DNA of 64,000 nucleotides from Lingula anatina (lineage: Eukaryota; Animalia; Brachiopoda), in contig CM120640.1 of the NCBI GenBank assembly GCA_051362555.1, positions 28,296,503-28,360,502 of the forward strand, given 5' to 3'. Both the position numbers and the translations under genes were made by a program. Below, piece by piece: positions 700 to 40,978 of this stretch. Within the stretch, counting starts at the first letter, position 1, and every line of letters begins with the position of its first letter. The notes under the pieces are model-generated. The model searched no databases and was not told the origin of the DNA. It worked only from the letters and a program-made list of their open reading frames with translations.

Positions 700-860
700 A
701 CTTTTCCAAAAATCAAATGTCTATAGATGCTCAATGTACTAAGAGTCAATTTCAATATCTTAAAATCAATCACGATATTGTTTAAAAAGGTTGCACACGT
801 TTGCCGTTACAGTCCATTCCAGAGAATAGGTGCTGCCATAATCAAGAACGTCTTCGTCGT
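700..860 (-). mobile_element. L2/CR1-type LINE 3' end fragment
   Basis: The minus strand reads KTFLIMAAPILWNGL, resembling the conserved 'F..AAP.LWN.LP' C-terminus of L2/CR1 ORF2. The same fragment is at ~24995-25155. Boundaries are approximate. Confidence 0.55.
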
Positions 861-861
861 C

Positions 862-1430
862 CCCAGCGGCAGTCTGGTTTTATTAGTCATCATCTGCAGT
901 GCAATTGGGAGTCCTATCTCAGAGGAAACCATCGGCCTGTTGTTCACCGTAGACTGGCTTCTGTAAGTTTTTTTCTTTGCTAACTTCGTACCATTTAGTG
1001 TTTGTCAAAAGCCGTGTAAAGAAGACATTTATTTTTACCTCTTATTCTCTAATACCGCGTGATTGAGCACACTATATGTTTATACTTTACATTACAGCAT
1101 GTGCTCCAATATTATACAAAAAGCGATAACAGCTTGACATTGATAGTGCTTTAATTTTGTCTATTGGCATTAATTGTCCTTTGTCAGCATAACATCTGAT
1201 ATACGTGTTTATAAATGAAATTTTCCCAGGGATCGGGTACAAGTGGCTTGTAATACTTTGAGCTCTGTCTCGCCTCCGCCGTCGTCGAAAAAGTCTGTAT
1301 AAAGCAACTTGATACAAGCTGTGATCAACCAACTGCAACCACGCAAGATCTTGAGAACTGCTATGACAATGATGCAGCCACAGTTTCACAAGATATTCTG
1401 CTCGCAAAGTTGATTTCAGGACGTGGACAT
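862..1430 (+). pseudogene. SLC1A-family transporter 3' remnant (5'-truncated exon 7 at 862-962; frameshifted exon 8 from 1230)
   Basis: PSGSLVLLVIICSAIGSPISEETIGLLFTVDWLL followed by a GTAAG donor matches exon 7 of the intact copy (31701-31841) but lacks its first ~40 nt and its acceptor. Exon 8 starts DRVQVACNTLSS, then has a 1-bp deletion near 1267 relative to 25513-25717. Confidence 0.85.
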
Positions 1431-12500: not shown

Positions 12501-15500
12501 AATGAACTTCACTCACCGTAATATTCATACAAATGTATAAAGTATATAAAGAACATAATCGTCATTCAATTTTCATTAAAAATATTCGCATTTGCCCACC
12601 GCATACATACAGGTCTAGACGTTTTTACTTCAAGACTGCCAATGAAAAACGCACCACAAACCGTCCCTCTCTGCACAAAGTTCCATATACATTGACATCG
12701 TCCTTGAAGGCAAGTCGACTGGGGGTCCAGGCAAACATCTGGAGCTATATTTTCGTCACAGCTCTCGTTTACATTAACTTTTGGCACTGCGGAGGCAACA
12801 AAAGTGATGTAGATGTTATGGTTATCTCGCTGATGATGGTTTCTTTTGAATAACGAAAGTGCATTTCTTTTCAAAATGTATGAATTAGGGTATGGAAAAT
12901 GAAGACAATTTGTGCACTGTTTTCGTATAAGATTAATGCCAAGAAAGATGGCATTTTTTAACACTCACAACACTTCCACGATAATGAAGAGTTTCGCTGA
13001 TAGGGATAAAATCTCGGTAAACAGGAGCACCTCCCTCCGGAACAGGTAGAATTTTCCGTCCTGCACTCGTTGGGTACATTCCCACTACATGTCTTATGAA
13101 GCTTTTTCCTGGGATCTAAAATTTAATAAAAGCGTGATTTTTACGCATTGTTTCTTTTGAAATCAAAATAACATGAAAAAATCCTCCAGGTTTACGCTAG
13201 TTACAGGATTAGGTTTATTGGCAGTGTGTGATATTGACCTAGTAAATTGGAGATATATTCATGTTAATAAAACGAGGTAAATATCACTTTATTATCTTAT
13301 ATTCAAAATGATTTATAGTTTTTACTCACATGTGAAACCGATAAAAACCTTGAATGTATATGGGTCAAAGTAAAAACCCTTTTTAAGAAAAGCTTATACA
13401 AGCAATTAGCTGACATTTTTAAACGGTCGTTGCAAATTTGCCACTGGTTAGCAAAGCGGCTATAGGAAGATGTTTTAGTTAACTATGCACATATCAGGTG
13501 AGACCGAGGTTTTCTCTCACAAATAATGTAAACCCGTCTTATTTATATACAAATTATGTCTGCCAATGTTTAGAAACTGGTAAGTATGGTAAGTGTTCCC
13601 TTTATTCTTTCGTACGGCAACATATTTCACAAGGACAGCAATCGTTGTCCCTGAGTAATTCTTACCATAACTGACAAAAATTATTTCCATGGTTTATAAC
13701 CAGTTTGGGTACTGTCCCCTTTGACCTCAGAATATAACTGACCTTGTATCTTTAAAATGAACGTATGACCTGGATGAGGAAGAAAAAAATACTTACCGCA
13801 TATATGGGAGCTCGTATTTAAAAATGCCCCTTCTTGGCATACGCAGCGCCCTTGCACACAGGTAGATAGCGGAAGAGAACTGTTACAAAACCTTTCAGAA
13901 CTACACGGCATTCCATGTCCAACTGAAATGAATGATACAAAGTTCGATACATTTTTTGGAATACTCCGTGATGATAAAGTAAATGCAATTCAAAGAGCTC
14001 ACTGCATATGAATAGTTTAGCAACCAGAACAATAATCCCTAAAAACTACTCCAAGAAGCACAAATTAAGTAATTTTTCTTTTTATATCGTCTAACAGTTT
14101 CAAAGTTAGTGAAATAGACCAATGACCTTCTTTGTCACGCTGGTCGTTGAGGATCAAGATGACATCACTTACTTTTCATGCATTCGTGCTCACTTTTGTT
14201 GTAGAAACCTGGTAGACAGACACACATATCATACTGACAGGTGCTATTGTTAACATTGTCCTCACATGTCGCATTAGAAGAGCACGGACTTCCCAAAGCA
14301 ACTGAAACAGATCAATGAAGATAATCTTTGGGTTCTTCTTTTACGCAACATAGCCAAAACTTCATTTGATAAACCACAAACCACAAACTTTTCTGTTCAG
14401 TGATGTCCCACACTCTCAAAATCATATTGAAAATCATCTAACAAAGAATTAGATGCAAAATTCTGCCAGAAATCCCACCCTACCAGTTTGGTTTCATGAA
14501 AGACAGAGGCACCAGAAATGCCATATTTGTTCTCAGAATGCTCAGCGAGAGAACCTTACAACATCAACAAGACCTGTACATGGTCTTCATCGACTATCAA
14601 AAAGCCATTGACAAGATCCGACATGAGGAGCTCTTCAAAATGCTTGCAAAAAATTCAAATAGATGACAAAGATATGCGGGTTATAAGATCAGTCTACTGT
14701 GATCAGCTTGCAGCAGTCCGCCTTCCTGTAGGCATGACCAACTGGTTTCCCATCAAAAGGGGCTTGCGTCAGGGCTGTGTCATGTCTCCAGACCTTTTTA
14801 ACTTATACTCTGAAATGATCTTGAGAGATTTGGAGGATCGTCCGGAAGGAATCACAGTCAATGGTGTCAGGATAAACAATCTCCGCTATGCCGATGATAC
14901 AGTTCTTTTAGCTACATCGAGGGAGGACCTCAAAATCTCTTTGATGCTGCTATTGCCTCCAGCACAAAGCTTGGACTACATGTTAACAGCAAAAAAACAA
15001 AAACCATGGTGGTTTCAAAGTCAGAGGTCACACCACGTTGCAGATTGCCTCATGGGAACACTCCCATCGACCAGGTCTCCTCATTCAACTATCTCGGGGC
15101 ACTTGAAGACAGAAATCCAAAGAAGAATTGGCCAAGCGAAAAATGCATTCCCGTCTCGGACCAATCTTCAAGGATCGTGGGCTGTCCTTAAAGATAAAGA
15201 TCCGCCTCCTTAAAACCTATGTCTGGTCTACTGTTCTTTATGGCTGTGAGTCTTGGACTTTGACAGCAGAAAGTCAACGTAACATTGAAGCAGCTGAAAT
15301 GTGGTTCTACAGGCGAATGCTCCGAATCTCCTACATTGAGCATGTTACATATGAAGGGGTCCTTAAACAGATTGATAAAAAAAGACAGCTTCTCAACACT
15401 GTCAGAGAAAGACAACTGAAGTTCTTGGGACATTGCATCAGAAAAGAGGGATTAGAAGATCTTAGCCTGAGCGGAAGAATACCTGGCAAAAGTGCCCGAG

Positions 15501-16844
15501 GCAGACATCGAAAGTCCTTTCTTGACAATTTTGAATTACCAACAAGACACCTTTGGTCATGGGTGAGAAATAGAAACCTTTGGCAGAATATCATCGTTCG
15601 TCACACACCGAATCGGTGATGGCACATGAAGAAGAAGAAGAGGAATCTTTCAGAGAATACAGCATAATGGATTAGATTTTCAGAATTTTGAATGATGATA
15701 ATACTATACAATGAAAATCATGCTTCTGTGATGTGCAATAGTCGGTCATCACCCACTTTCGAATTTCTGACCAATCTTGAATTTCTTTTGAAAAAAATTT
15801 GATTACCTTTCTTGCAGGTGTCCATAGACGCATTAAAGTACCCTGTCAGGCAGCGGCAGGAGGTGCTGCTGCTATCGCAATAGCTGTGTTCCACTGCGCC
15901 AGAACAAAACTCGTGGACACCTATTTTGCACGTTGAACCTAGCTGGACTGTTCAGAAAAGAAAGTGTTGATACCCATAGTATAAAAGCGTTTTTGTCATT
16001 CTTAAATATAAAACCATAAAATATGAATAGAAAAAATAAGTTAATTATATATATATATATATATACAACAGCTTAATCTAAAATCTGTCCCCAGTTACCC
16101 GCTATGGGGCAAATAAATGAGTGTGGTTTATGCCAATAGATTCTTTCAACACTTAAGTCAAGAAAAGAGTACACGCTTTCAATACTTTTAATGGTTAATT
16201 TAATACAAGACTTTTCCCGAATAGTTCAAATTGTTCAAAATATGAAACTTACTTTTGGAACAACCCGCTTCTCCGTGGTTGGCGAAGTAACCAGGAATAC
16301 ACTGGCAAGTACTTTCTCTACAGGTGGTGTTGGATATATCTACGCATTGACTGTTGTTTGTACACACAACTCCAACAACTCCAGCTAATGACGCATGATA
16401 TGTTAAGGAATTGGGTTGCGGATGAAGAACTCTAGGTATTCTTTTGAAAATACTTCTGTACATGTACACCCCCCTTTTTAGCAAGACCAAGGTGCAATAT
16501 TTACAAACTACAGTATCATAAGTAATCGTACTAAAACACTTATGGCTTGAAATGTCAGCATGTGATGACAAATTATCTAAAAATCAAGAACAACTAATTA
16601 TGAAGAAATACCAAAGTGAACGTAACATAACATAACATAACATAACATAACATAATTTGACATAACATACAACTTTGCTTTATAAATTTTCAAATTTCTA
16701 TGCATTCCCGCTTGTCGCGTCTGCACTACAGTTAAGCAGCATATGATTTGCGTTTACCACGAACTGTCCGATAAGAGTGCGCATATGAAGGTTTGTAAAT
16801 GGAGAAGCTGGCACACATCGGACCTGAAGCTCTCTACAGTTGTT

Positions 16845-16903
<59 letters not shown>

Positions 16904-18262
16904 CAAATAAACTCCCTTACTTATATTACATGACGCTGTGCCTTCCACGCCGTTGAAACCAGCTGCGCACGTGCACTGGCCATTTGTACATTGGCTGTTT
17001 GGGATTGAGGTGAGACATAGGCTAGAGCTGTCGCAATATGTTCCAATCACAGTTTCTAAAGAATTAAAAAGTAAGAAGGGTAAATTGTGCCGTCAAATTG
17101 GTGTGGTAAAAAGCAATGATAGCATGTAAAGTTAAAAACATGTTAACTTGATTAGTTGTAAAAATATACAATATATTGGGTTTACTGCATTTGACATAAT
17201 TAACTGTAAATGTGAAGTTAATTTTAGCTATTTTTAGCTGAAACCTGGAGATGAAGGTTCCGTTGCAAACGATTAATCAAAATATTGGCGATTAATTAAA
17301 AGTATGCATGTATGTGTATGTTTGTGTGTGCGTGCTGCAGGTCCCACTTACTGTTTTCACACGTAGAAGAACCAAGAGCACCAAAGTAGCCATTGGCACA
17401 GTGACATATTCCTATCCAAGCGCCACTAGGTATGTTACATACAAGTAGGTATTCTGTCGCATATCTATTGCATGTAGCGTTAGATAAACAGACAGATCCT
17501 ACTCCTGAAGCTGAAAATTGCAAAAAATTAATGAGCAAATATTAGTTGGTGAGTTTTATAGGGACATGTCTCAAGACTCTCAACAAATTGTGTACTGATA
17601 ACTAAGAAATAACATTCACTTTCCTCTCGTTTCATTTGTATGGACAGAAAGGGGTTAATTGCATCATTTCAACATTTTTCTTGTCTGCAAATATGTAAAA
17701 CATCCTAGTATGATTTACAGTTGATAAAATGAGCAAACTTCAATTATGAGATAATAATTGCGTTTTATTTTTAAACAATACTTTCTCCAAAGGCTTCCGT
17801 ACTGACCAATGACACAGCTAGATCCCCCCAAATCGCCGTAGTAAGGGGATTTACATCGACAAATTCCATTGCTGCAAATACTTTGTTGCAAGTTTTCTTG
17901 ACAAAACAGATCACTTAGACAGATCATGCCAACTCGGTTTCTTCCTAAAAGTATGATATTTAGAAATGACACCAATTAATATAATACACACTTGCTACGG
18001 AGTGGCTTCGTATCAACATCGTATAGCTTAATTACCGGGCAAAATAGTGTATTTACCCGTCCGGTTAATATGAACTTGTAAATCCACAAAAGCAATTTGA
18101 AATAATTATGTTAACTTTCTTGTCCCTATTAGAATTACCAGCTTTTAGAGTCACTCCATACATCAATCCCTTTACAAAACTTTTTGCTGATTCTGTTTAC
18201 AAGTTTGGATGAAAAAAATATTATTATATTTTTTATTATCTTTGCCATAGAAAATGAAGAGA

Positions 18263-18314
<52 letters not shown>

Positions 18315-19230
18315 CGCCACAGAAGTTAAAAAATTATTTTGGAATACAAAATAAAAATGCGTTCCATACTTCTACAAACACCATCTGTTCCGTCTGGGGT
18401 GTACTCCCCTTCCTGCGCACAACGACAGCGATATCCAAGACATTTCCAATCTGATGTCCCGTTTACACAGTGACTGTCATTAAAACAAGACGTCCCAATA
18501 ACGTGCTCTGGAATGTTAGAGAAACATTTTAACACAGAACTCATTCTAAGCCCTTCAATAAATATGTGTGTATGTGTGTGAAAGAGCGAGAGAAGGGGTA
18601 ATTTATTTTAAAAAACGATTTTCTCACAGTATTTAGTGTAAGCATGGGAATATCGAGAAAGAGAGATAAAGAAAGAGAATACATACTTTTTTCACAAACA
18701 GTAGACTGGAACACCCCATAATAGCCCTGCGCGCATCTACAAATCCTATCAATGCAGACTGAATTTGGTGATATGTCGTTTCTCACGCAATCCGTTTTAT
18801 TATAGCAACTCGCAACGTCAATACCGTTCTTTGGTTTCTCTGAAAAAAGATTTGATAAACAGAGGTCAAGATTTTTAATGCAGGCCAATAAACTTCTATC
18901 AGTTTCTGCCCCTTTTTATAGCAAAAGAAGCAGGTCTCATATTTTTATGAGTCGTCAACCATGGGATTCACTAAAACCTTATCTAATTAATTAAAAGATA
19001 CGATTCATTAGATTTGTCACTGCAGCAAAAAAGATACTTGGCCAATAAAGATAAAGAGGAACACAAGCCTGCTGGACTTTACAGCATATGGCAAATTTAA
19101 TAAATATTCATTTAAAAAAATAAAATAGATAGAAAACAATGAAGGTAAACTTACCCTGTGCCCTAGAATAATCAAGGAATAAAATGATAAAAGCGATGAT
19201 CCAGATATGATTCATTGATCTTTTCATCAT
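6586..19230 (-). CDS. Type-I membrane protein: signal peptide, 16 six-Cys EB/EGF-like modules, 2 EGF, SEA, 2 EGF, TM, short tail (~1109 aa, 25 exons)
   Basis: GT-AG exons (minus): 19155-19230 (MMKRSMNHIWIIAFIILFLDYSRAQ), 18687-18839, 18370-18507, 17807-17944, 17352-17510, 16921-17055, 16253-16384, 15807-15947, 14173-14301, 13797-13922, 12969-13115, 12655-12786, 12124-12258, 11744-11872, 11309-11431, 10065-10202, 9589-9729, 9239-9361, 8746-8865, 8341-8468, 7806-8034, 7441-7584, 7223-7289, 7007-7050, 6586-6788. Sum 3330 nt, in frame. TM segment is LASVSAGGAVGAVLVIIIIVIA; TGA at 6586-6588. Domain names come from Cys spacing and motif recognition. Confidence 0.88.
14397..15641 (+). mobile_element. 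5'-truncated, frameshifted RTE-clade non-LTR retrotransposon in an intron, antisense to the host gene
   Basis: RT motifs QFGF, GLRQGCVMSPDLFNLY and LRYADD, plus the RTE C-terminal LYGCESWTL...EMWFYRRMLRI. Stop at 15619, then a (GAA)n tail at ~15628-15641. The ORF is split over three frames. Confidence 0.93.
16846..16900. repeat. (TA)n microsatellite
   Basis: Direct inspection. Confidence 0.95.
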
Positions 19231-22241: not shown

Positions 22242-25200
22242 ATGCCCACTTCATCCTGCAAAAAGTGTGACCCAAAATCGACCAAAGGATGCCTTATAAA
22301 GAACAGATTACTGATCGTTTCGATGATTGGGATATGTTTAGGTATCACCCTTGGCTTAAGGCTTCGACCAGCTTCCCTCTCGGAATCCACCATAATGTGG
22401 ATAGGTATTTGGGGAGAGTTATTTCTGCGCATGCTCCGAATGATCATCATTCCGCTGGTAATAGCTTGTCTGGTTACAGGTAACCGAGTTTTTTTCCTGA
22501 TTTTTGTACAGTGAAAAAAAGGTACATTGTCAGACGGATTCAGAAGCTCTACGCTAGCACGTTTTATGCGTTTTTATCACTTGCATAGTAGAATGCAAAT
22601 TTGCACTTTGAAACAAGGTTGAAAATGTAGGCCCCATTTTTCTCATTTATATAAATTATGGTAATTATATACAACGTATATCTATAAGGTAATACATTGT
22701 CTTTAATTGGTAACATGTATTCTAAGTAAGTGATGGGGGAATCAGTTTCATATATACAGTACCAAAAATAATGCCTAAAGGCACGATTAAGAGTGTGAGG
22801 CAGAGGCAGGCAAAAGAAACCATGAAAAGGACCCCCCCCCCCCCCCCCCCACACACACACACAGATACAGTACAGTATTATGTTATACTTCAGGTGTCGG
22901 AGCTTTAGAAGACAAGGCCAGTGGTCGTCTTGGAATTGCAACTCTGGTGTACATAATTGTTACCCAGATTATTGGGGTCATGATTGGTATTATACTGGCA
23001 GTTTCTATCAGACCAGGAACTAATTTGGGCGATGAACCTCAATTTGGAACTGCCAGTAGCACAGAATATGGGGATACATTTGCAGATATGTTAAGGTGTG
23101 TGTGTGTCTGTGTGTGGAAAAAATATACGACTCATTTGCCGTTGACTGTATGCTAAATGCATCGAAAAAATAAAGCATTCAGGTCCGTAGGTTTCGAAAA
23201 ATTCCTTTTTTTTTTTTTTGAGGGGGGGGGGAGGAAGGGGGTTGAAAGACTGAAATACTTGTGTGTGGAACAAACTTATTAGGTCTGTCAATACCGTCCG
23301 TGGTACTTATCTAGATGCTGACTTAAGGAAAAGTAAGTGTGATCGACTGTGAGAAAAGAAATAAGGCGAAGGATCCCCCAAACATTTTAATTTTTCAAAC
23401 ACCTCTAATAGTATCCCCAGGTACCTACTGGCCTGACACCAGAGAAAATGTAACTTGTGTTTTAGGCTTCTTCAATTAAATGTGTGCTGAGATCAGATAA
23501 TAATTTCGTGTTTCTTTTTGATAGAAACCTCTTCCCAGAAAACGTGGTTCAGGCATGCTTGCAACATGTGGGGACCGAGGTTTCCTCAAACACAAGCAAG
23601 AAAAATGCCGGTTTGACCACGAATTTGACCATGCCATCAAAATTGGTGATTTATAAAGATGGAACAAACTTATTAGGTCTGTCCATTTTCAACACACACA
23701 CACACACACACACACATACACACACACACACAAAGAAAAATACTCAAACCATCTTGCACTTCAATATAAAAGATATTTCTAAACAGATAGAATAAGAATA
23801 CTTTTTTTCGTTTGCTTATTTCTATAGATCTGTCAATGAATATCAAAACTTTGGGCCACAAAATTAAAAATTTTACGCTTACTATTAAAAAATTGATTAA
23901 CATAGCGGAGCTTTAACATCTAGTATCTAAGCATTTACTTTTCTTTTTCAAGGGATGGTAGTATTCAGTTTTGTGTTTGGTTGGAGAGTTCACGCTGCCG
24001 ATGAAGTTGGAAAGCCTGTTTACAACTTCTTTGTCGGGGTCTCAGTGGTCATATTCAATATGTTGACTCTAATCTTTTGGTAAATATTTTAAGAAGAACG
24101 CTATTGATCATACAAAATCAAGTGACCATTGTATCTCATTGTCATCAAATTCTGTCTATTCATTTTATTTTATTTTATTATTTTTTTTTTTGTAATTTAG
24201 TTTCTCGACTTTAAAAGGTTGGGGAAAGCGCCTTTAGAACAAAGTCGCTGAACCTCTAAGCCAAATATTTACTATTCACTGGTGGATTCAGATTATTTAA
24301 ACTTTTCTCATCGCCATTTTTGTGATCCTTTTTTTAGATAGCTTCAAATAACTTATTTACTTGCATGTTGTCACTGGCAGGTATGCTCCACTGGGAATTG
24401 CCAGTTTGATAGCGGCCTCCATTCTTCGTGTTGAAGACATCTCAACGGCCTTCCAGTCACTTGGTCTACTCGTTCTTAGCGTCGTTGTTGGTAACCTGTT
24501 TCATATGTTGGTAGTTTTGCCGTTTATTTACTTCGCCTTTGTGCGCAAGAACCCCTACAAGTACATGTTTAACTTCCTGGAAGCATTGCTGGTCGGAATA
24601 GTGCCACCAAGCGGGTAGAGCTATCCAGTTTTGTGTTAACTAAAGTATATACATTTTCGATCGTTTTAGGAACAAACAGTTCATTCTACCGTGTACTTGG
24701 CTTAAGTATTTGTCAAGTGTCACCCTAAATTTATGTTTTTCTTTTCAAAGAAGCACCAAATCTTTGTGGTAGGATGTGATGTTATGTTATGTTATGTTAT
24801 GTTGCGCTATGATAGAATCGGAGCATATTCCATGATTTCCATCATACCTGAATGTCGTGGACAAACCTATCCCATACTTCAAATCCATTTATTTATAACA
24901 TAAGTGGATGTGATAGGTGTGACAGTATAGCAGCATTTAAGTAATTTGCTGTAGAAAGGTTGACGAATTAACCGACGGTTTTTGGCTTAAACACATTTCT
25001 CCAAAAATCAAATGTCTGTAGATGCTCAATGTACTAAGAGTCAATTTTAATATCTTAAAATCAATCACGATATTGTTTAAAAAGGTTGCACACGTTTGCA
25101 GTTACAGTCCATTCCAGAGAATAGGTGCTGCAATAATCAAGAACGTCTTCATCGTCCCCAGCGGCAGTCTGGTTTTATAAGTCATCATCTGCAGTGCAAT

Positions 25201-25717
25201 GGGGAGTCCTATCTCAGACGAAACCATCAGCCTGTTTTTCACCGTAGACTGGCTGCTGTAAGTTTTTTTTTTTTTTGCTTTGCAAACTTCGTGCCATTTA
25301 GTTTTTGTCAAAGGCCGTGTAAAGAAGTCATTTATTTTTACCTCTTACTCTCTAAGAGCGCGTGATTGAGCACACTGTATGTTTATACTTTACATTACAG
25401 CATGTGCTCCTATATTATACAAAAAGCGATAACAGCTTAACATTGATAGTGCTTTAATTTTGTCTATTGGCATGAATTGTCCTTTGTCAGTATAACATCA
25501 AAATTTTCCCAGGGATCGAGTACAAGTGGCTTGTAATAGTTTGAGCTCTGGGCTCGCCTCCGCCGTCGTCGAAAAAGTCTGCAGAAAGCAACTTGATACA
25601 AGCTGTGATCAACCAACTGCAAACAGGCAAGATCTTGAGAACTGCTATGACAATGATGCAGCCACAGTTTCACAAGAGATTCTGCTGGCAAAGTCGATTT
25701 CAGGACGTGGGACATGA
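22242..25717 (+). pseudogene. Rearranged SLC1A-family transporter copy (exons 1-5 and 8 open; exon 6 deleted; exon 7 truncated with a stop)
   Basis: Exons 22242-22479, 22894-23095, 23525-23676, 23953-24079 and 24381-24614 are the same lengths as in the intact copy. There is no exon 6. The exon-7 remnant 25157-25257 has TAA at 25178-25180. Exon 8 at 25513-25717 is open. It may instead be a truncated functional gene (see findings). Confidence 0.8.
24995..25155 (-). mobile_element. L2/CR1-type LINE 3' end fragment
   Basis: The minus strand reads KTFLIIAAPILWNGL; duplicate of ~700-860. Confidence 0.55.
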
Positions 25718-25733
25718 ACAAGTGCCCTATTTG

Positions 25734-27932: not shown

Positions 27933-28773
27933 ATGCCGACTTTATCCTGCAATAAGTGCGGCCAAAAATCGATCAGGGGATGGCTCATCAAGAACAGATT
28001 ACTGATCATTTCGATGATTGGGATATGCCTAGGTATCATCCTTGGCTTCGGGCTTCGACCAGCTTCCCTCTCGGAATCCACCATAATGTGGATAGGTATT
28101 TGGGGAGAGTTATTTCTGCGCATGCTCAAAATGATCATCATTCCGCTGGTAATAGCTTGTCTAGTTACAGGTAACCGAGTTTTTTCCTGATTATCTTATG
28201 CTAAAAAAAGTTCATCATCTGGTAACTATTTCACTTATTCTTGAATGAAATCCCCAACGCATGGCTCTACTTTATCTAGTACTTATGAATTGTAAAGTAG
28301 AATGTTTAACAAACACTGGTATGTAACAAGTTAATTGCTGCTTGTTTCCATTTGGGCCAGTGCTTACTATATAGCGATGAAAGCTCTAAAGACAACATCA
28401 GTGGATAGCATCATCTCCACACATCACACATTGTGTTAAATAAATCAACGAGCTTAAAACCTCCCACTGCAACTTAAATTACTTCAGGCGTTTTCAAGAT
28501 ATACACCTATGTGACGTTCCAAAAAATTATATATTTTTATGCATATACTTTACGTTGTTAAGTATAACTTCAGGTGTCGGTGCTTTAGAAGTTAAGACCA
28601 GTGGTAGTATCGGAATTGCAACTCTGGTGTACATAATCGTTACCCAGGTTATTGGGGTCATGATTGGTATTATACTGGCAGTCTCTATCAGACCAGGAAC
28701 TGATTTGGGCGATGAACCACAATTTGGAACTGCCAGTAGCACAGAATATGGGGATACATTTGCAGATATGTTA

Positions 28774-28817
<44 letters not shown>

Positions 28818-31800
28818 AGTATACGACTCCTTTATCGTTATCTGTGCGCTGAGAAAAATTTAAGGAAAAATATTTTAAAAAATACCTGCTTTGTAACCTT
28901 TTTCAATGAAATACATACATACCGAACTTTTTCAATAGAAACCTCGTCCCAGAAAACGTGGTTCAGGCATGCTTGCAACATGTGGAGACAGAGGTTTCTT
29001 CAAATAAAAGCAAGGAAAATACCGGTTCTACCAAGAATTTGACTGTACCAACAAAATCGGTGGTTTACAAGGAAGGGACGAATTTATTAGGTCAGTCCTT
29101 AAAAAATTTGCAAAATCATTTTGTTCAAGTTCAATGAGTAAAAATACTAATGAGCTACATTATCCGTAGGCTCAGATTTACTTTTGTTTCTGTTTCTGTT
29201 TTTATAAATGAATTCTGCAGTTTTAGAGTTTACGAATATTATGTTTTGATAAAGTTAATACGTTGTATTAAGGTGAACATGGCTGAACAGAGCCCATCTT
29301 AACCCTCGGTCACAACCGGCCGCACGGGCTCTTACGGCCTGTTTGCGTCCAAACTTAAGGGAAAATCTTGCGAAATTTCGAGTACGCAGACAGCCCGTAA
29401 GTACGTACTGAGGATATTAGATATTGGATATTGTCCAAAAACTACAAATAATGCGAACAGCGAGGCCGCAAGTGTAACTTGGTCCCCCACGGAATTTGCA
29501 AGGAGTTCGCAAGTGAGACGTACATGGTCCAGGACGCACATCGCAAGCAACGAAGGAGTAAGTGCCCCTTGCCTGTTGAGGATGTTCGCACGCCCTCACA
29601 AATTACGAACAAAATCGAACGCACGGCGGGATCGCGTCACCCCACGCCAGGAGTGTAAAAGGCGCACGCTCGTGTTTCGCCGATGAACGTCGATTGTGCA
29701 ACGTGTACAAGATTTTTCAAAATTTTTGAATTTTGCTCAATTCGCTTTCCAATAGGCCTCAAAAAGACAAGGAAAAGAAGCTTAGAGAGAAAAGAAGAAG
29801 TGTGAACTACTTTCGCCGTGCAATGCATTCTCTTCATAAGTGGTGTGTGCCACGTACGCAGACTGCAAGACAGACTCAAGAAATGAGTACAATTTTCACG
29901 GCAATCGCACCCTGCAAGTATCTTCGTTAATACACGACGTGGCCACTGCGACTCGCAAGGCAGACTTGCCCATTGTCACTGCAACCTTCATTTACCTCTA
30001 CGAACTCCATGGCCTTCACTGTACCCAAAATTCGCGACGGACGTGAGACCCTTAATACGTCCGGTTGTGACCGAGGCTTTACGTATGACTGTCTAGTATC
30101 AAAACATATACATTTATTTTTTTACTTCAAGGGATCATAGTATTCAGCTTGGTGTTTGGTTGGGGAGTTCACGCTGCCGGTGAGGTCGGAAAGCCTGTTT
30201 ACAATTTCTTTGTTGGAGTGTCTGGTGTCATATTCAAGATGCTGACTCTAATCTTTTGGTATGATTTATTTTAAACACAATAATGCATATTTACGAGTTG
30301 TGTTTCAATGTCAAATTCTGTCAATCCTGCGTTTTATAATGTACATGGACAGATTTCATTTTTTACTGGAGGTAAAAAACATTACACGGTTGACTTTGGA
30401 ATGCAATCACTGCATGTATGCCACATGTTAAGTATATACATGTATTTACATATCTGAGATATCAAGACTTTTCTACCCCCCCCCCCCCCTTTTTAAATCC
30501 ATAAAATTGGCATTTTGATTCAGGGTAAGTTTCCTTCCATTTTGTTGAGAGACAAGCCTGATTCCCGCATTTTATTTTGGAAAGATGGGATGGATACCCC
30601 TTCATCTGTCTTAAACAACGTACGAAGCACGCCCTGCCCTTTTAGGACATCATCGCTGTTTTCATAAGGCATTCATGGTCGCAATTTATTTTGACGAGGT
30701 TTTGTGTACAATAAACATAAAGGGGGGCTCGATGCGTTAGGATCTATTGCCTTATCCGCTTAGATCAGAGACGTTTCTATTTTGGCAATGGACATAATGT
30801 TGCAAGAATGTGTTATTGTTGTTATTGGCAGGTATGCTCCTCTAGGAATCGCCAGTTTGATAGCGGCATCCATTCTTCGTGTTGAAGACATCTCAACGGC
30901 TTTCCAGTCCCTTGGTCTGTTTGCTCTGAGCATCGTTGTGGGGAACATCTTTTATATATTGGTAGTTTTACCATTAATTTATTTCGCCTTTGTGCGCAAG
31001 AACCCCTACAAGTACCTGTATAACCTCCTGGAGGCACTGCTGGTTGGAATAGCTCCACCGAGCAGGTAGAATTTCTCTCTCTATATTTTTTTAAATTAAC
31101 ACACTTATTCTCATGTTTGTTTTTCGAGCCTAACATGGCGAAAATTGCTTGCCTTTGTGATAAATAAGATTAAATGTGATAATCAAGTAGACCGATGTGG
31201 TATACGTACGTTCACATACTGATGTTTCTTCAAAATTCATTACATGATCGTTTTTTTCATTACTCCAAGCGCTGCCGCCATGCCCTTCTTGTTCAAATGC
31301 TGTGAAGAGGAGTGCAAGATTGACAACAGAGTCACTAAGTTCGTCCTTCCGATTGCTGTGACCATTAACCGCGATGGATCCGTTATGTTCATAATAATTG
31401 CCGCCATGTTCATAGCGCAAACCTATGGTATGACCATTGGGGCTGGAGAGGTGGCCATAGCCGGGTGAGATAGGATCTTTGTAGTGCGTGCACATCTAGC
31501 TTTTTTAGACTACTTGGTTAAGACGATTGTAAGGGTGAATATTTGAGAGGACATGGTTCAATTACAGATAAAAGTCAATTGCCAAAGACAAAAGTGTTGA
31601 CCCCCCCCCCAAAAAAAAAAAAATAATAAATAAAAAAAAAATAAATAAATAAAAGAAATGAAAATTACCAAATAATCCTAAGAAACCAACTCATTTTCAG
31701 CCTTCTCATTATATTGCTGTCCCTGTCTTTGGCTGCCATTCCCAGTGGCAGTTTGGTTTTATTAGTTATCGTCTGCAGTGCAATGGGGATTCCTATCTCA

Positions 31801-32558
31801 AACGAAACCATCGGCCTGTTGTTCACCGTAGACTGGCTTCTGTAAGTATTTTTTCTGTGTTAATTAAAAAATTATTTGTGCTGGTGGCCTATTTCTTTTA
31901 GTTAACCTGTCGAAGGTCGCAAGTTGATAAACGTAATGATTGTGGTAATTCAAGTGTAGGTCACTTGTCATAGCCATTGTTTTCTATCAAATTAGGTGTT
32001 CATTCCTAGTACGTTGAAAATAATTTTAATAAATAGTAATATATAAAATAATAATACAATAAATAGTCAAACCTACATTTAACGACCCTTTGCGGTTGAA
32101 AGTTAGATATATACACGATGTGATGTAGAATTTCTGATTACCCACTGACACGTCGTGGAATGCAACAAATTTTGTTTTTTGATTGAAAATTACCTGAAAT
32201 TTGGAATAACTGAAACGTTGTTACACGTAATAGGGAAAATTTTCGTCTACTGTCCCGTAAAAAAGCGAGTTATTGAACATCCTTTCATATTTGCTCTAAT
32301 ATTGTATAATTAATTCATAATCACATTTTGCATTGTCATTGAATGTGCTTCGATACCAAAAGGCATTACTTAAAAACATCCAGCAGATTTTAATCCTCTT
32401 TTTCCAGGGATCGAGTGCGGTCGGCCAGTAATATTTTGAGCCACGGGTTTGCCTGCGCCGTTGTCGAAAGGGTCTGTAGAAAGCAACTTGAAACAAGTAG
32501 TGATCAACCGTCTGCAAGCACACAAGATCACGAGAACTGCTATGACAATGCAGTTTAA
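27933..32558 (+). CDS. SLC1A-family (excitatory/neutral amino acid transporter, dicarboxylate/amino acid:cation symporter) protein, divergent, 479 aa, 8 exons
   Basis: GT-AG exons 27933-28170, 28574-28775, 28939-29090, 30132-30258, 30832-31065, 31270-31464, 31701-31841, 32408-32558 total 1440 nt in frame. Family motifs: GELFLRMLKMIIIPL, DMLRNLVPENVVQAC, NLLGIIVFS, WYAPLGIASLIA, RVTKFVLPI, VDWLLDR. Confidence 0.93.
29302..30078. mobile_element. Non-autonomous PIF/Harbinger-type DNA transposon in SLC1A intron 3
   Basis: TIR accctcggtcacaaccgg / ccggttgtgaccgaggct with TTA TSD (29299-29301, 30079-30081). Interior homologous to 20013-20701. Confidence 0.88.
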
Positions 32559-35458
32559 CAACGGACTCTGCTCGCCAAGTGGGTTTTAGGAAGTAAAGTC
32601 GTGAACAAGTCGCCTGATTAAGCTTGCCAATGAGTCCAGTCCCTTCGGCTATATTTGATCTTTACCATTTGCCCACAGTAAAGTCTTGAATCCGACATTT
32701 TGCATTTATGAATATTGCTAATGAAGGAAGGAGGTCATGCTCTCTTTCTGGTTTTTGTTCATGGCTTTAAAGACAAATAACAAACGTATTTTTTTTGTAT
32801 CTGAGACATAAGCAGACGATTCAAAAGTTTCTGTATAGGTATTATTTACCTGTTTATATCGGTAAAACTATTCACCTATTCAAGGCCTAGCTATATCGGA
32901 AAAACGCGGCACTACACAGGTTTGGTTTGCTATTTACAGAGCAAGGGTACGAAAAAAGAGTGCAGCCGAGAATGTATAAGATGAAGTATTATGTACATTT
33001 GCATGATAACAATATCCAAAATTCAAACTGAGAGCATAGTTTGTATCCACATTATAAAATTAAAGACATTTTCAGAATAAAAAGCTGAAAGATATTTAAA
33101 TTTACCAGTATCCTCGTTTTGCTATTATATTCCGCAATTCAGCTCGCAAACTATTTTATTGCAAATCCTACGCCTTTAAAATTTTATATTCAATTGACGC
33201 GACCTTGCCTATATTTGTTGTTCAAAACCGCATTGATGACACTTTTTCAGATTGTAAATAATAATTGGCTGCAATAAATGATAATATAAAAGGGTTTTTG
33301 CACTTTTTAATTGCATGCCATATGCCCAAATGCCATGGACAGACATAGTCTATTCGTTTTCTTCACAGATTAATGCAGTGTTTTATGCACTCTAGGACCC
33401 AAAATATCTTCTATCGTAGATTTGAGTAATTTGCAATTGTTTATCAATACTTTCAGAACAAGATGAAATTGCGCGGCATTTTAAAAACATAGGACGGGAA
33501 ATAATCAGAATATTTTTTAATTAAAATCTAGATTAAAATTTAAATAAAAATAATTAGATTAAAATCATGCTATCTCCTTCCTAATGAATTGGACAAAATA
33601 GTTTCAAATACTTCACGCTACGTATCATTTTGTGTAAATATAACGTAGACCTACCCTCGGAACGATAAATGGTTGAACGAAGTTTCAGAGCGGTGGTGGT
33701 CATATATACTGTATAGACTAAACTGATTGCAAAGTATTGGAAACTGGCTTAAACACCTACACTACTGTAATTATTAAGGAAAAACACAACGCACTGTAAT
33801 ATCAAATGCATATTTTTTTTACTTCACAGCAGGGTAAGTATTGCGCCTGGATCTGCTAGTGTAACCACATCAACTTTGTAAATAAATATACACAAGTCCC
33901 ACAAGTTTAACTAGAGTACCATAATTAAGGGGTTAACAAAAAATACCTATCAAAAAATAGTTAACGTTTGTTTGCAAATAAACAGAACTGAAAAAAAAAT
34001 TTATAAAGCGATAACAAAAAATAACAAATACCTAAGCACACAAAGCAGTGCCAAACTGAAATAAAAGAGGTCTCTGGCTACTCAAACAATAATAATTATA
34101 CTATTGATGAAGTTTATGAGAACAATGTTAAACATATTAAATACTTAGAAAGGTTTGCTGCCATCCTTTGTGGAACCTTAACCTATTACTAAAAAATGCC
34201 TCTATGTACAGATTAGCTGCCATCAAGGGCAAAAGGTATCTCTAAAACTACACAAGACAAACAAGATATAAGACACTGTCGTAAGTTAGACTGAAATTTG
34301 TGCCAACAATATTTAAAAAGAACATGTGACTTGGTGAGTTTTCTCATAACAATCATGCCTTTTAAATGGGAACTTATATTTTTTAAATATTGCTTTTAAC
34401 TTGAATAAGTGATTTACTTGAGAACACTCTGATCTCTTTTTAAGTTCCACTAATTAAGATAGCTATCATTAGCTACACATATTATCTATTAATTATTTTC
34501 TTTCTTTATTTTTACTTTTCATAGATGAAGTATCATGGAATGAACAGAGATCAACACACTGGCCAGATTATGCAGTGTTGTCGTATTTAAAACTCCTGCT
34601 AAAGTGTAGTTTATTAAATATGAGAACACTAAACAAACTGGTCTAACAAAAGAACTATAACTGCCACAACCACCCACATAACTTGTATGTACAGAGTTTT
34701 CATAAAATATTATGCAAAACTGATATATTTTTTTAACCTTTCACTAATGTGACTTTTTTTAGTTAAGCATGAAGCAGCATTTCTCCCAACATTACCAGTA
34801 CAAGATATAAATACACAGTTACAATGTAAGTTTGGCGGCTTTAAATAGTGTCAAAAGAAATTAGTGAAAAAAAAAAAAAAAAAAAAACGTTTTCACCGGT
34901 GGCTTATCACAAACTTTCAGCCTCTCACTTATATACACAAATTTACAGCACAAATATCAATTGTGATTATCTAAATATATTAATAATAGGGGAAAAAGGG
35001 GAAAACAGACTTCAATACCATGAAGAATCAAACATAACTGTCTAGCCCTGACATAAAAAACACTCAAAAGCATTCATAACAGGAGAGGACTTCAAGAGCA
35101 CAAACCTATGCCCAGGAAAAGGCAGTTACTGAAAGTGATTACAGAAACAAAAACGCTTCAAAAAATTATTAGGAAACCTGGATTCGGTTGGCATTGTCAT
35201 CACTTTTTTCCCTTCTAAATAACTGACTTACATGAAAATTTCATCAAAATTTGTGCAGAACTCTTTGTGATCCACTAAAAAAACATAAAAACCAACACCG
35301 CTGTATACATGACCTCCTTTACAGGAGAAGGTAAGGGCACTTTCATTAAATGAAAGAAATATCTATAATGACAACTTTAAAATAAAAACCAATTTTAACA
35401 CTTCAAAGAATTTAACCATTCCCTATAAAATTAGTGTGTTAAATTGTGTAGCAATCTT

Positions 35459-38400
35459 TCACATGCATTCCTGCTTGTTGCAATCCTTCTGTGGGCCCCA
35501 GTATACATGTGCATATTTTGCTCGCAGCGCTTGCTCCAGTTCACGTGCATGCTCTTTATCTCGTGTCTCCACGGTTACCTTTACCTGAAGTACAATTTGT
35601 AATAAACATAACTCCCTACAAAATATCTCAATTGTTTCTCAAATTGTGAAACAAGCCACATATTGTATTAATGTCATCATACCTCAAGTAGAATATTTTT
35701 TCATGAAAAAAAAAATTAAAATTTTAAGTGAACACACTTTCAGGTAGCTACTGACTATATTTATGGCCCTTATTAGTCCTTGCCACTTCGTAATAGCACA
35801 AATGTATTACCTGAACTGAGAATATGTCAGCTTTTAGCCATGCCCTTTCATGGTATATGTCCTTGATACTGAAGACAAAAAGGAAAATATGTATTACAAT
35901 AACTTTTATGGCAATATTCAATGAACACATTCATTTGCAGTTGCCACCAAATATTTGATAACATATATATAGGCACATGCACCCATATCCCAGTATAAAT
36001 ATGCAGGGTAAAAGATCACGCATACCTGGCTCCCATCTGTGCCAGCAACTTAGCCAGCTCAGCAATCCCCCCTGGTCTGTCAGTGACCGTAGCTGTAAAT
36101 GTACACAGGCGTCCATCTGCCGCCAGCCCTCTCTCCATGCAACGCCCAAGGATTGTTGTGTCAATATTACCACCACACAGAGCAATGACAACCCTGAAAA
36201 CAAATCAAAATACAGCTCTGAGACAATTGTGTTTTCAATCTTAAAGTCTCATATTCTGGTACTACCAATTGCAAGTAGAGGGTATATTTCCAATTCCTAG
36301 TTTTTGAAAGTGTCTCTCAATTATAACAAGATAGGGCAACTGTAACTGCCTACATGGATACTTTGACATGCATACCATTACAAACCTTGAGACAAAACAT
36401 GATGCACTTTTTAGTGAATAGATTGAAATTATGCAGAATGTAATGTTTTACTTGATAAATATTTAAATAATAAAAATAATTTATAATTTTATAGTGGTAT
36501 GCATCAATGCAATTCTGAAAGTGCCATCAATGTCACTCACCGTTTGTTTTCCAATTCGGGTAGTTTCCCCTGTATGAGGGCAGCCAGACCTGTGGCACCT
36601 GCTCCCTCAACTACTGCCTTCTCTATTTCTATCAGTCTCAGGATGGACAGAGCAATGGCTTCTTCACTGGAATAATACAAAGATATAATAAAAATAATAA
36701 TTACAAAATTGGGAAAATGCAAGAAAAGGTTTTTGTGAGTGTTAGGTTAGATAGTTGAGTGTTGGGTAAATTTTTATTACATTATTCATTGCATATTCAA
36801 GAAGTTCGGAATTTTTTGTGCTTCTAGGAACTAAGATTGCAATACTATCTATTGAAACTAACAAAACGAGGCATGAAAAAATCACTACTGTAACAGAAAA
36901 TTCACCATTCCAACATATTCTAGATAACTGCCTGATAAGTTTCAGTTAAAAAGATTGAATTTTTATTTTTCTATGCTGCCTAATTGCTCAGGTACCTTCA
37001 TTACAGTATACTTTATATATATTAACTTGTGCAGATCATTGTTGATTAAACACTTTATAAACTTTCTATTGATATAACTTTCTATTGCTTTATTTATACT
37101 TTTTACACCAGACAGAGCTGATGAAAATGTACAGAGATAAATAATGATAATAATAATACAAAAAAGGAACTTTTACACAGATACATATATAGCACCAAAA
37201 TAACATTTATCATTATGCATCATTACTACAGGTGCATATCCAATATTTCATAATCATAAACCAGGTGCAATCTTAATGCCAAGTCAACTGCTCACAGCTT
37301 TAATCATATGCTAGCGTCATACTTTAAGTATTGTATACATGACTAAGGTATAGATATCAATAAGAACCAAAAAATATAGCAAAATGCACAAAATATGCCT
37401 TATATTACCTACCTTACAACCACCATTTTGTCAACCAATGGGGCAGCAGTCGCCAAGGCATTTACACCAACTGTGGGGACAGCCAGACCTTGAAAAGGAA
37501 AAAAATTAAACCCTACAGTCTTGGGCAATAAAAACAACTCCAATCGTAAAGGCCTTCTTTGGAGAGATTTGGGTAAAGGTAGTGTAATAAAAATAACTAT
37601 AATGCATTATCAAGAATGCTGGATATTACAATTCACATCAACTGTTCTTGTTTTCAATTTTTTGTACTTAGTATATCCCCTACACTATGTACTAACCATC
37701 TGCCAGAGTAGAGGAGGCCTTAGTATAGATAGGCTTGCCTGCCTTTAGAGCATTGGAGAAGCTGCAACATCTTTCAGACTCCACACCCTACATTGAAGAA
37801 ACTTGCTTAGAAAACAAATGTTTCAGGTATACACATTTTTTTCTATCAAAATAAAGTGAGTTTTGACACTTACCATTATATGACATACTAGTGAATATGC
37901 TATACTTAGGAATTTTAAACTTTTTTAAAAAAAGAATGAATTTCAGTTGTATCAAGAAAAAAAAAAACAATTTAAAACACTATCAGAGTGAATTCAGTCA
38001 AAATCATATTCACTTATTGCCCTCCTGAATAACTGTCTATCCTAGAGTTGTACTCATCTCTGATGCATGTACTTACAATGACCAGTGTTTCAGGACTAAG
38101 ACTCTTGACTGCCAGAGCCAGCCCAGCTATCAGGCCACCACCACCTACTGGTACTATCACAGCATCCACATCAGACACCTGGTCCATGATTTCCAGACCC
38201 ATGGTGCCCTGGCCTGCCAGGATGTGAGGGTGGTCATACCTGGAACATATGGACAATTCTTTCAATTTCAGTCACTCCTTCATTTTTTCTTTCTCATACC
38301 TGTACATGTACTATGAGCTACATGTATGTTGGGATCTTCGGAATAAGCACACAAGTAAATATATAAACATAGATCTGATTGAGCCAAACATTATAAAAAT

Positions 38401-40252
38401 ATTGAAAACACATAAAGGCACATAACAAATACTTTGTAGCACACTCAGAAAACAATTAAGTCAGACTTGCTTCACTGAAAAGAATGCAACAGTTTAGAAA
38501 AATAAGATCTGGACAAATATGGGAATCGTTAGTGCTCCATAAGAAATAAAGCTACTCTGTATGCATTACTCACCCATTGATATACTGTAACTGTTGTTTC
38601 TTCCCAAGTCTCATAGCATGTTCTCTAGACTAAAATATTAACAAAACATGGCCATTGTTACATATCACACAAAAATGTCAACAATGAGTGCATGACATTT
38701 TGATAACAATCTAGAAAAAGCAATTAAGATGTTAATCGCATAAATCACAAGTACATAAATCCTATAAATCAAAAGTACATATGGGCTCCTAATAAAAATA
38801 TTTGGATTTTTCATATTTATATTCAGCGTCTTGCTATTTTGGTACATAAAAAAATACCATCAAAATGCCAAAGTATCAAGTGGACCCAAATATTTGCTCT
38901 TGTCATCTATCACCAATTTAAAAGGTACAAATAAACACTTATGGCTTACTATGATTTCAGTTCCTCTGGGCAAATAATCAACATGCTGATACCGTACACA
39001 ACCAGTGATTTTATCTTGAACTCACCTCTCCAATATCCACTCCCTTTACAATAACACGTGCCCCATACTGTTGACACAGGTTGATCTTCATGAGTGGAGC
39101 CACCACTGGCATCACCACAGTGACTGGGATCTTCAGCTCCTGTCCGTGATATGCCAGGGCTAGGGCATGGTTCCCAGCACTGGCTGCTATCACACCACGA
39201 GCTTTCTGCTCCTGAAATTTAAAAAAAAAAAAAAAACAAAAAAACAGGTACATATTAAACATGCTTAATACATGTATATACTGCACTGGTGTGATAGCTG
39301 AATATGTCAATGTAATAATATCACAGCATTTTTTTTTTATATAACTTTGTTGCATTTTTCTTAATGTTTTCCATCTTTTTTTTTTATCTCGTAAATATTC
39401 TTTATCCGAGTGAACTACACATATTTTCACATTAAGCAGTCATATCATAACACCCCACAACATCTGTTCACAATATACATGTATTTTTCACATATGTAGT
39501 TACCTTGGATAACATCTGGAGGGTGTATCTTGCTCCTCTTTCTTTGAAGCTAAAAATACAATTTTTTTTCTAGTGTATGCATAAAGCAGCAAAAACATTC
39601 TACTTCATCTCAATTAATTCAGAAACAACATCTTTGTATGTTAAGATAAACTGATTAGAAAAACTTAGATGCACAACAGTACTGGATTACATCATACCCA
39701 AAAAAAAAGCCTACCTTCCTGTTACTTGTAGAAAATCTTTCTTGAAATAAATATCTGTTTTGAAGTGATGTGACATAGTGGACCACTAGAAAGAAAAATG
39801 CAACAGCAACAAGAATAAACAATCTAACAGAATACTTGCAGTCAGACACTTCATTATATAGAAACAATATCACCATCAATTTTTTCACTGAAATATTTTA
39901 AAATAAAATTTTGTTAGATGCCAAAATTATCAAAACCTATATGCCATTTATTTGATCAAACTCTTGCCGATCACATTGGTTTTGGACAAAAAAAAAATTT
40001 CCTTACTGTACATGGCGTCTTCTGGACTCCATTTTTGATCTTGTAGGCAGCAGCACTAATGTCCTGAAACTGAATCTGTCTTGGATGCTCGGGGTCACAA
40101 AAAGGATCTTTCAAAACTTCAGTATCCTCCTCCTCTTCTTCCATATTCTTCCCCTCATCAAATTGACCATTTGGCATGGGGTCATCATCAGATGAAATGT
40201 CTCCATTCATTGATGAATGTCCATTCACCATATTGTTCGTCTCTGTTGACAT
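35459..40252 (-). CDS. PLP-dependent L-threonine/serine dehydratase (threonine ammonia-lyase; fold type II) with C-terminal ACT-like domain, 470 aa, 12 coding exons
   Basis: Exons (minus) 40007-40252, 39715-39785, 39504-39549, 39026-39211, 38574-38629, 38077-38239, 37697-37787, 37413-37488, 36541-36666, 36026-36193, 35811-35868, 35459-35584 total 1413 nt in frame. Motifs: TGSFKERG (PLP Lys), ASAGNHA, AGQGT, PVGGGGL, EGAGA, CGGNID, DRPGGIA. Confidence 0.95.
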
Positions 40253-40978
40253 TATAAGAGTGGGATGGTACTGGAGTGGTATATATACTTCTACAGCTGT
40301 ATAAAACTATAAAAATAAATGCCTAAGTTGCATATCATGTTGCACATCATTAATGCAATAAAGTCATTGGGTGCATGACAATGGCTGGTTTAGTACAGAC
40401 AAGGCAATGAATAAAAGCATATGTGTCTATGATATTATCAAATCAGGCATGCACATAATGAACAACATGAAAGAATGGTGTGGGAGACTAAGTGCATGGC
40501 ACATGCAGCAAACGTGATCAATGAGGTGGAAAGAAAGAAGTTCAGGGATGATGGAGAGATATAATAGACATTATTCATTCCCTTTTTCTCTAAAAAAATT
40601 AAATCCATTTCATTGATGGAAATCAAAGTTTAGCAATAGCTTGGTGACCTCCCTTCTCCTGGCAAGTACAACAAATGATTATGTTTCACACATAGGGGGT
40701 TTAACCATCACCAATCCCTGTCTATAAAGGGTGCATGATGCAATAGTTATTCTCTTGTACCTATAGCTAGGACCTGTACTTGGGAACAGAAGGACAAATG
40801 ATCAACATGTAATTGTCAGTGTCATCACTGTGATCGAGGTTGCAGTGGCAGCTGAAAGTTCAGTTTTCAATTGTACATATCCAGAAAATTAAACATAAAA
40901 CCAAAAGCATTGGATTATTCAACTGAAACGTAGTCTACTTTGTGCAGGAAGCGGTACCACAGAAAAGGGTTTGTTTAC

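Follow-up and report, generated by a model that had tools for sequence, protein, structure and literature searches.

The question raised by one locus in a 64,000-nucleotide stretch of Lingula anatina DNA (the window) is how a transporter of the SLC1A family can keep its substrate pocket when the residues that couple transport to ions have been replaced, and whether such a protein is peculiar to this animal. An earlier note on this DNA had described arginine where the NMDG motif has its methionine, histidine at the Na1 site and isoleucine at the proton carrier, and had proposed that the Arg and His act as built-in cations. Judged by its residues, the intact gene product is an SLC1A membrane protein of the EAAT fold and belongs to an invertebrate subfamily of old standing, in which the pocket for acidic amino acids is kept and the proton carrier and the side-chain ligands of Na1 and Na2 are missing. 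This is a real and conserved feature of one branch of a known family, neither a private oddity nor decay, and the mechanism set out below is plausible. The protein is predicted, with confidence evenly balanced for and against, to be a non-concentrating exchanger of aspartate/glutamate-like substrates whose H+ and K+ coupling is gone and whose Na+ coupling is slight or absent.

The gene occupies positions 27933-32558 of the plus strand and consists of eight exons (1440 nt when spliced), which encode 479 residues with no internal stop. All introns are of the GT-AG type and 14 of 14 splice sites are intact, as the earlier note had anticipated in describing a reading frame clean across eight exons; the span that it gave, 31270-32558, covers exons 6-8, and the whole gene starts at 27933. 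The motifs that it quoted for transmembrane segments (TM) 3, 7 and 8 and for hairpin (HP) 1 were all found at the bases given. The features of the gene are the following, with human EAAT3 residues in brackets:

27933-28170, plus strand: exon 1, start codon, TM1 and TM2 (Pfam SDF 34.2 bits, cut-off 27.9)
28574-28775, plus strand: exon 2, TM3, with T103 kept (T101) and Q104 in place of the Na3 ligand (T102) (Pfam SDF 24.9 bits, below the cut-off)
28939-29090, plus strand: exon 3, TM4a and the extracellular loop
30132-30258, plus strand: exon 4, TM4c and TM5
30832-31065, plus strand: exon 5, TM6 and HP1a, with the substrate ligand S318 (S333); absent from the public model P0001
31270-31464, plus strand: exon 6, HP1b and TM7, with N351-R352-D353-G354 for NMDG, S355 (T370), F358 (Y373) and I359 (E374) (Pfam SDF 60.7 bits)
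31370-31372, plus strand: Arg352 codon CGC, at the position of EAAT3 M367 and GltPh M311 (Na2 ligand and coupling switch)
31391-31393, plus strand: Ile359 codon, where EAAT3 has the proton carrier E374
31701-31841, plus strand: exon 7, HP2 with lost glycines, and TM8a
32408-32558, plus strand: exon 8, TM8b, with D431, R434 and N438 kept, H442 replacing the Na1 ligand (D455), and the stop codon
32442-32444, plus strand: His442 codon CAC, at the position of EAAT3 D455 and GltPh D405

The codons of T103 and Q104 lie at 28642 and 28645; the junction of exons 5 and 6 falls within the HP1 motif and that of exons 7 and 8 within the TM8 motif. Four of the six exons scanned with Pfam SDF (PF00375) pass the cut-off singly, one matches below it and one has no match. 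The sole close protein match to the gene is the public Lingula anatina protein P0001, which carries PF00375 and agrees with the gene product at 334 of 338 residues with all motifs present; exon 5 is missing from its model, and the junction so created accounts for one of the four differences.

The residue register was taken from HMMER alignments to the PDB chains of human EAAT3, which are gapless through TM3, TM7 and TM8; human EAAT3 and the EAAT1-5 group are the best PDB sequence match (E 2e-66 for P0001). Four ion-site residues are changed, M367 to R352, E374 to I359, D455 to H442 and T102 to Q104, and the substrate ligands D444, R447 and N451 are retained as D431, R434 and N438, so that the alignment bears out the earlier reading of this region. 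S333 is also kept, as S318, in the HP1 register. Three of the four Na3 ligands are in place (T101 as T103, N366 as N351, D368 as D353), the fourth being the Gln at T102. The comparison adds changes that the earlier note had not listed, namely T370S, Y373F, T418L, T448S, G454S, G362A and S74C, together with a rebuilt HP2 (G407S, A408L, G410A and G415S). The ligand and coupling roles of the changed residues are described in PMC7929514, PMC11297037 and PMC12668577; according to PMC7929514, T418 hydrogen-bonds E374 and M367 is the switch that links Na+ to substrate binding. Misalignment as the source of the motifs is rejected on the gapless alignment, sequencing error on the identical residues in P0001 and in other phyla, and chance because the same substitutions recur across a clade of related proteins; private decay was likewise rejected as their source.

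This clade was exposed only by a HMMER search of 50%-identity representatives (best 150 of 5785 matches), which was combined with a profile search (best 120 of 193) into the comparison set. A word-indexed search with exon 6 alone gave one protein among 16 candidates, and a search with the TM7-TM8 region gave mostly bacterial proteins. The alignment holds 277 rows, one protein of 4596 residues and 117 bacterial matches being left out, and the tree holds 215, after 61 near-duplicates, one short row and 18 motif columns were removed. In this tree (FastTree) the Lingula protein lies in a clade of 48 with a support of 0.998. The same clade receives values of 100 (LG+G4) and 99 (C20 mixture, quick search) in the Shimodaira-Hasegawa-like approximate likelihood-ratio test (SH-aLRT) on a 59-row subset, also with the 18 motif columns removed. 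There are 42 non-redundant members (the 48 minus seven near-copies or fragments, plus P0431), 30 of them with an organism name. They come from Lingula; Owenia, Capitella and Paralvinella; many gastropods and bivalves; Tubulanus; Spirometra; and Ptychodera and Saccoglossus, that is, from brachiopod, annelid, mollusc, nemertean, flatworm and hemichordate groups, which we take to be six phyla across protostomes and deuterostomes. No chordate, echinoderm, arthropod or nematode occurs among the 30 named members, which are best-match samples. A clade with the N-R-D-G and His signature, which the earlier note had proposed to look for, therefore exists, and the substitutions are not private to the Lingula copy.

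Among the matches listed, the closest protein from outside Lingula is P0122 of Owenia, at 42% identity. Lingula anatina itself has a second full-length member at another locus, P0431, which is 37% identical to the window protein and carries Ala367 and His455. The database labels of the members are EAAT-like only. Recent bacterial transfer is rejected because the clade nests among animal SLC1 rows and the HP1 and TM8 intron positions match the break-off points of other animal gene models. The nearest group in the trees is an arthropod clade of 10 rows (Pieris, Bemisia, Rhipicephalus, Darwinula and Armadillidium; SH-aLRT 98-99), and since this group has D455 and is without E374, the quick trees suggest that proton coupling was lost first. 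No description of the clade was found in the open literature by title or the opening of the abstract, a search that leaves most subscription journals outside its coverage and opens no supplements; term matches to it are likewise absent from PMC4729200, PMC9993606, PMC13401447 and PMC5055395, the EAAT tree and accession file of the last of which may include clade members.

The pattern of conservation was counted over the clade rows with a residue at the site, drawn from the 42 members, with 157 other SLC1 rows for comparison. M367 is kept in 0/41 (R 23, A 10, K 4, G 3, C 1), E374 in 0/41, with hydrophobic replacements throughout, and T102 in 0/40, Asn being present in 28. D455 is kept in 1/41, a mis-modelled gene end, and is otherwise mostly H (23), Q (7) or N (4); the His is nearly always preceded by G454S. 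The corresponding figures in the other SLC1 rows are 147/157 for M367, 125/157 for E374 and 133/143 for D455. The substrate ligands remain in nearly all clade members (D444 in 40/41, R447 in 40/41 and N451 in 36/41), and N366 and D368 in 20/41 and 23/41. Of 84 columns that are at least 85% conserved in NMD-bearing rows, 31 remain at least 80% conserved in the clade and 13 are lost; most of the lost columns surround the ion sites in TM3, TM7, HP2 and TM8, and the scaffold glycines and prolines stay. The HP2 tip is changed clade-wide (G407A, A408I/L, A409P and G415S), and the matches of EAAT3 R61 and K64 in TM2 are mostly kept (31/36 and 29/36 rows). On these counts the loss of residues in the clade is selective. 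The full combination of NRD with His occurs in 7 of the 42 members: Lingula, Paralvinella, Ptychodera, Lymnaea, Pomacea, Batillaria and Haliotis.

Six bivalve members (P0146, P0169, P0256, P0297, P0168 and P0174) have also lost N366 and D368 and keep Arg367, D444 and R447; theirs are the most eroded ion sites seen. Outside the clade, four proteins on separate branches (P0123, P0202, P0219 from Oppia nitens, and P0258) have Lys at the M367 position, two of them also being without D455, a possible convergence.

AlphaFold2 models of two clade relatives match EAAT/ASCT structures in Foldseek: P0122 (predicted local distance difference test, pLDDT, 70; 12-row alignment) and P0274, which has NRDG and the His (pLDDT 86; 81-row alignment; TM-score up to 0.76/0.90). 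From these modelled relatives, the elevator fold with HP1, a broken TM7, HP2 and TM8 is predicted for the Lingula protein. Within this fold, E374I and T418L would remove H+ symport and K+ antiport, and basic groups belonging to the protein itself, H442 and R352, would occupy the spaces of Na1 and Na2. With these sites filled, the TM7 loop would stay flipped in and ready for substrate although no ions are bound; closure of HP2 would then depend mainly on bound substrate, and the elevator would move loaded in both directions, giving exchange or downhill flux. The residual Na3 site (T103, N351 and D353) may still bind one structural Na+ in the Lingula copy.

Published mutants alter the changed sites one at a time, and several reported systems are consistent with individual steps. 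In rat EAAC1, E373Q and D454N abolish forward transport and leave homoexchange (PMC2151618), and GltPh M311A binds aspartate largely without Na+ (PMC6175574, citing Verdon 2014). ASCT2 is described as an obligate exchanger because its TM7 is compact and Na1 is occupied (PMC11297037). AncInt, a reconstructed bacterial protein, exchanges substrate independently of cations, and its living descendants have mostly lost the Na+ ligands (PMC12668577), and in the LeuT fold R262 of CaiT and K158 of ApcT stand in for Na2 (PMC6925253).

The proposal of built-in cations was examined at sites 367 and 455 in 39 of the 42 members, two with gaps and one with a bad gene end being dropped. Both R/K367 and H455 are present in nine, R/K only in 16, H only in 13 and neither in one. 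One or the other is thus kept in 38/39, and about six double losses would be expected under independent evolution in tree simulations (p 0.007 from 2172 retained draws when the root is R/K+H, and p 0.017 from 1269 when it is non-R/K). The rarity of double loss (1/39 against about six expected) fits a need for one of two basic side chains, and the sequences suggest that one is needed at either 367 or 455. The proposal is partly supported in this refined form, since loss of both is rare; neither residue is universal, and neither is required singly, because R/K367 occurs in 27/41 and His455 in 23/41.

The Lingula copy does not stand alone at its locus. Two broken relatives lie upstream:

22242-25720, plus strand: broken tandem paralog A, exons 1-5 open at 85% amino acid identity, a stop codon in exon 7, and R447Q and D455S in TM8
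820-1420, plus strand: 3' remnant of a third copy, parts of exons 7-8 with exon 8 frameshifted, matching paralog A at 90% identity over 1.2 kb

R447Q and D455S are found in both. No equivalent of exon 6 of paralog A was found within the 64-kb window; P0278, a public model of this paralog, does include an exon 6, in which Leu stands where EAAT3 has M367, and the window copy is without that exon. The presence of the broken paralog and the remnant indicates that the transporter locus turns over. Between the intact gene and paralog A, the ratio of nonsynonymous to synonymous substitution rates (dN/dS) is 0.27 (bootstrap 0.18-0.41; 317 codons), a value for exons 1-5 only, with the TM7 and TM8 motifs lying outside. 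The earlier note had named substitutions private to this copy with a dN/dS near 1 as grounds for abandoning its reading; the value is well below 1 over that part of the gene.

RNA was taken from eight of nine runs of the Lingula anatina label, of which 6-26% of each was read. Sense-strand reads on the gene occur in two of the eight, X4 and X6, both from one study: the depth in X4 is about 1 both at the 5' end and on exon 6, and in X6 it is 0.2-1.2 across bins of exons 5-8 and 2.8 downstream, partly intronic. The other six runs have no or next to no exon reads, and in none of the eight did a splice joint of the gene come up to the threshold for listing. As a control, coverage and splicing of the neighbouring gene at about 33800-40310 on the minus strand are good in X5, X6 and X8 and weak in X3; a four-run batch that includes X4 is without such a control. 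This neighbour is convergent with the transporter, well expressed and spliced, and it carries a pyridoxal phosphate enzyme domain (Pfam PALP); we take it to resemble threonine/serine dehydratase. Intron 3 of the transporter gene contains an insert resembling a miniature inverted-repeat transposable element (29301-30079; 22-nt terminal inverted repeats), related copies of which from elsewhere are transcribed and account for most RNA reads placed on the gene.

A number of observations weigh against an exchanger with built-in cations. A likelihood-ratio test of whether the two sites evolve in a linked way gives borderline values (p 0.050 and 0.064), and the double-loss pattern was chosen post hoc, after the data had been seen. 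The root state at 367 is ambiguous, a non-R/K root having the higher likelihood (-35.9 versus -38.3), and the raw association weakens when Lys at 366 is counted as basic (Fisher p 0.024 versus 0.0007). Neither basic residue is fixed, A/G/C replacing R/K at 367 in 14/41 and H455 being absent in 18/41, and a His in the membrane may be neutral. EAAC1 D454N keeps a normal apparent Na+ affinity (PMC2151618), so losing that Asp alone leaves Na+ dependence, and Na2 is built largely of backbone carbonyls (PMC11297037). N351, D353 and T103 are kept in the Lingula protein. The sparse reads and the missing splice joint mean that the gene is at most weakly or narrowly expressed in the sampled RNA, which is thin evidence, and no transport data for any clade member were found in the open literature.

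A bolder account goes further and is advanced only tentatively, as less probable than its negation. It would make the clade a subfamily of SLC1 that is still undescribed, dates back to the protostome-deuterostome split, is present in at least six phyla, and is the first animal branch without Na+ coupling. The Arg or Lys of the NMD loop and the His of the Na1 site would be interchangeable built-in cations, the protein would be a fully ion-independent exchanger, and living members would show each stage of loss.

The alternative that survives best, itself unlikely, is a Na+-driven symporter that moves one or two Na+ per substrate through Na3 without H+/K+ coupling. The three Na3 ligands kept in Lingula, the partial retention of N366 and D368 in the clade and the behaviour of EAAC1 D454N (PMC2151618) all speak for it, and the Asn that mostly replaces T102 (28/40) could still bind Na+. 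However, N366 or D368 is gone from roughly half of the clade, with D444 and R447 kept, and Na3 is therefore dispensable in many members; moreover, the switch between Na+ and substrate, M367 (PMC7929514), is absent in 41/41. A proton-coupled symporter with His442 as a new titratable group, which would parallel the change from Na+ to H+ coupling in bacteria, is decidedly doubtful. The signature of the bacterial H+-coupled proteins falls at the same three places, GltPh T92, M311 and D405 (PMC12668577), and His is the commonest state at 455, nearly always after G454S; but the residues themselves differ from that signature (hydrophobic 92, L311 and N405), His is absent in 18/41, and the animal proton carrier E374 is gone in 41/41.

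Improbable as a full explanation is a changed substrate (for instance D-aspartate, an opine, or a sulfonate like taurine or cysteate) with R352 as a substrate ligand and not an ion mimic. M311 contacts the substrate in solved structures (PMC12668577), T370S, T448S and the clade-wide HP2 tip changes line the pocket, and the nearest group in the trees, the arthropod clade, is also without E374. Shifts of substrate are known among invertebrate SLC1 proteins: CuqDCT carries dicarboxylates, and Drosophila EAAT2 carries aspartate and taurine (PMC3737229). Nevertheless, D444, R447 and N451, which confer acidic amino acid specificity, are the best-kept residues, and the loss of D455, T102 and E374 is left unexplained. 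Such a change is compatible with the exchanger, and both can hold.

A non-transporting amino acid sensor or ligand-gated anion channel is very improbable. The kept ligand pocket, the lost coupling and the mostly kept matches of R61 and K64, residues of EAAT3 linked to the anion path, would suit it; but the scaffold and the prolines and glycines of the hinges are preserved just as transporters have them, S74 is Cys, EAAT anion currents need Na+, and nothing points positively to signalling. Least credible of all is decay of the Lingula copy alone, independent of the clade and like its two broken neighbours: the tandem wrecks, the P0001 model without exon 5, the near-zero exon reads in six of eight runs and the unlisted splice joint are outweighed by the open frame with its 14 splice sites, the dN/dS of 0.27, the match of P0001 at 334/338 with all motifs, the sense-strand reads in X4 and X6, and a motif set shared with an annelid, three gastropods and an abalone, and a hemichordate.

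Elsewhere in the window, a reverse-transcriptase fragment resembling a long interspersed nuclear element lies at 14500-15619, in pieces across several frames. Several cysteine-rich exons, one matching the EB module, lie at about 13700-18900 on the minus strand, and a weak match to the RhoGAP29/45 N-terminal domain, below the Pfam cut-off, lies at 52400-52738.

To our knowledge, the characterised animal SLC1 transporters are all Na+-dependent. The conserved core of coupling is taken to be the NMD loop, and here a natural clade swaps M367, D455, E374 and T102 with the substrate pocket kept. Its members range from NRD with His through NAD with His and SAN with His to xRx without His, and they offer ready-made proteins for asking how ion coupling is built or lost, a question so far addressed in bacteria with reconstructed ancestors. 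It also follows that many genes of molluscs and annelids carrying the label 'excitatory amino acid transporter-like' probably do not act as synaptic glutamate pumps, with consequences for the way in which expression studies interpret them.

Compared with known systems, the Lingula protein is an SLC1 member that lacks the coupling residues by which EAATs, ASCTs and the bacterial H+-coupled group are defined. It shares fold, family and the ligands D444, R447, N451 and S333 with EAAT1-5 (SLC1A1-3, 6 and 7), and thus has the acidic substrate ligands of an EAAT and none of NMDG with M367, the proton carrier E374 or the Na1 ligand D455. These residues and T102 are present in EAAT1-5, from which the Lingula clade is separate in all trees, whereas Lingula has NRDG and a rebuilt HP2. 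The arthropod clade resembles that of Lingula in the absence of E374 (10/10) and in partial changes at T370 and HP2; however, it keeps D455 (10/10) and mostly M367 (7/10). This arthropod clade may hold Drosophila EAAT2. Invertebrate SLC1 proteins of changed function are already known, as CuqDCT illustrates; its D444N and T448A (PMC3737229) differ from D431 and S435 of Lingula.

The bacterial H+-coupled GltP, GltT and DctA are changed at the same positions as the Lingula protein (GltPh 92-93, 311 and 405), but in place of their signature (PMC12668577) Lingula has T103, R352 and H442, that is, Thr/Gln, Arg and His. CaiT R262 and ApcT K158 put a basic side chain where Na+ would sit (PMC6925253), a proposed shared principle; these LeuT-fold proteins are unrelated and serve as analogy only. 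ASCT1 and ASCT2 (SLC1A4/5) also have no proton glutamate and work by exchange, as predicted for Lingula. They keep NMDG and all three Na+ sites and replace R447 (PMC11297037); the Lingula protein is the opposite, with R447 kept and Na+ ligands lost. The ASCT pattern of R447 to Cys/Thr, E374 to Gln and a kept NMDG is replaced by R434, I359 and NRDG, and the protein does not group with ASCT rows. AncInt and ExtInt (Reddy et al. 2025, PMC12668577) are likewise SLC1 proteins that departed from Na+ coupling, AncInt being an aspartate exchanger, and 16% of living ExtInt members keep all Na+ ligands. AncInt is bacterial and was uncoupled by distant changes with its sites intact, whereas the Lingula clade is animal and places basic side chains at the sites themselves (PMC12668577 for AncInt). 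By analogy with ASCT or AncInt, the Lingula protein may work as an exchanger.

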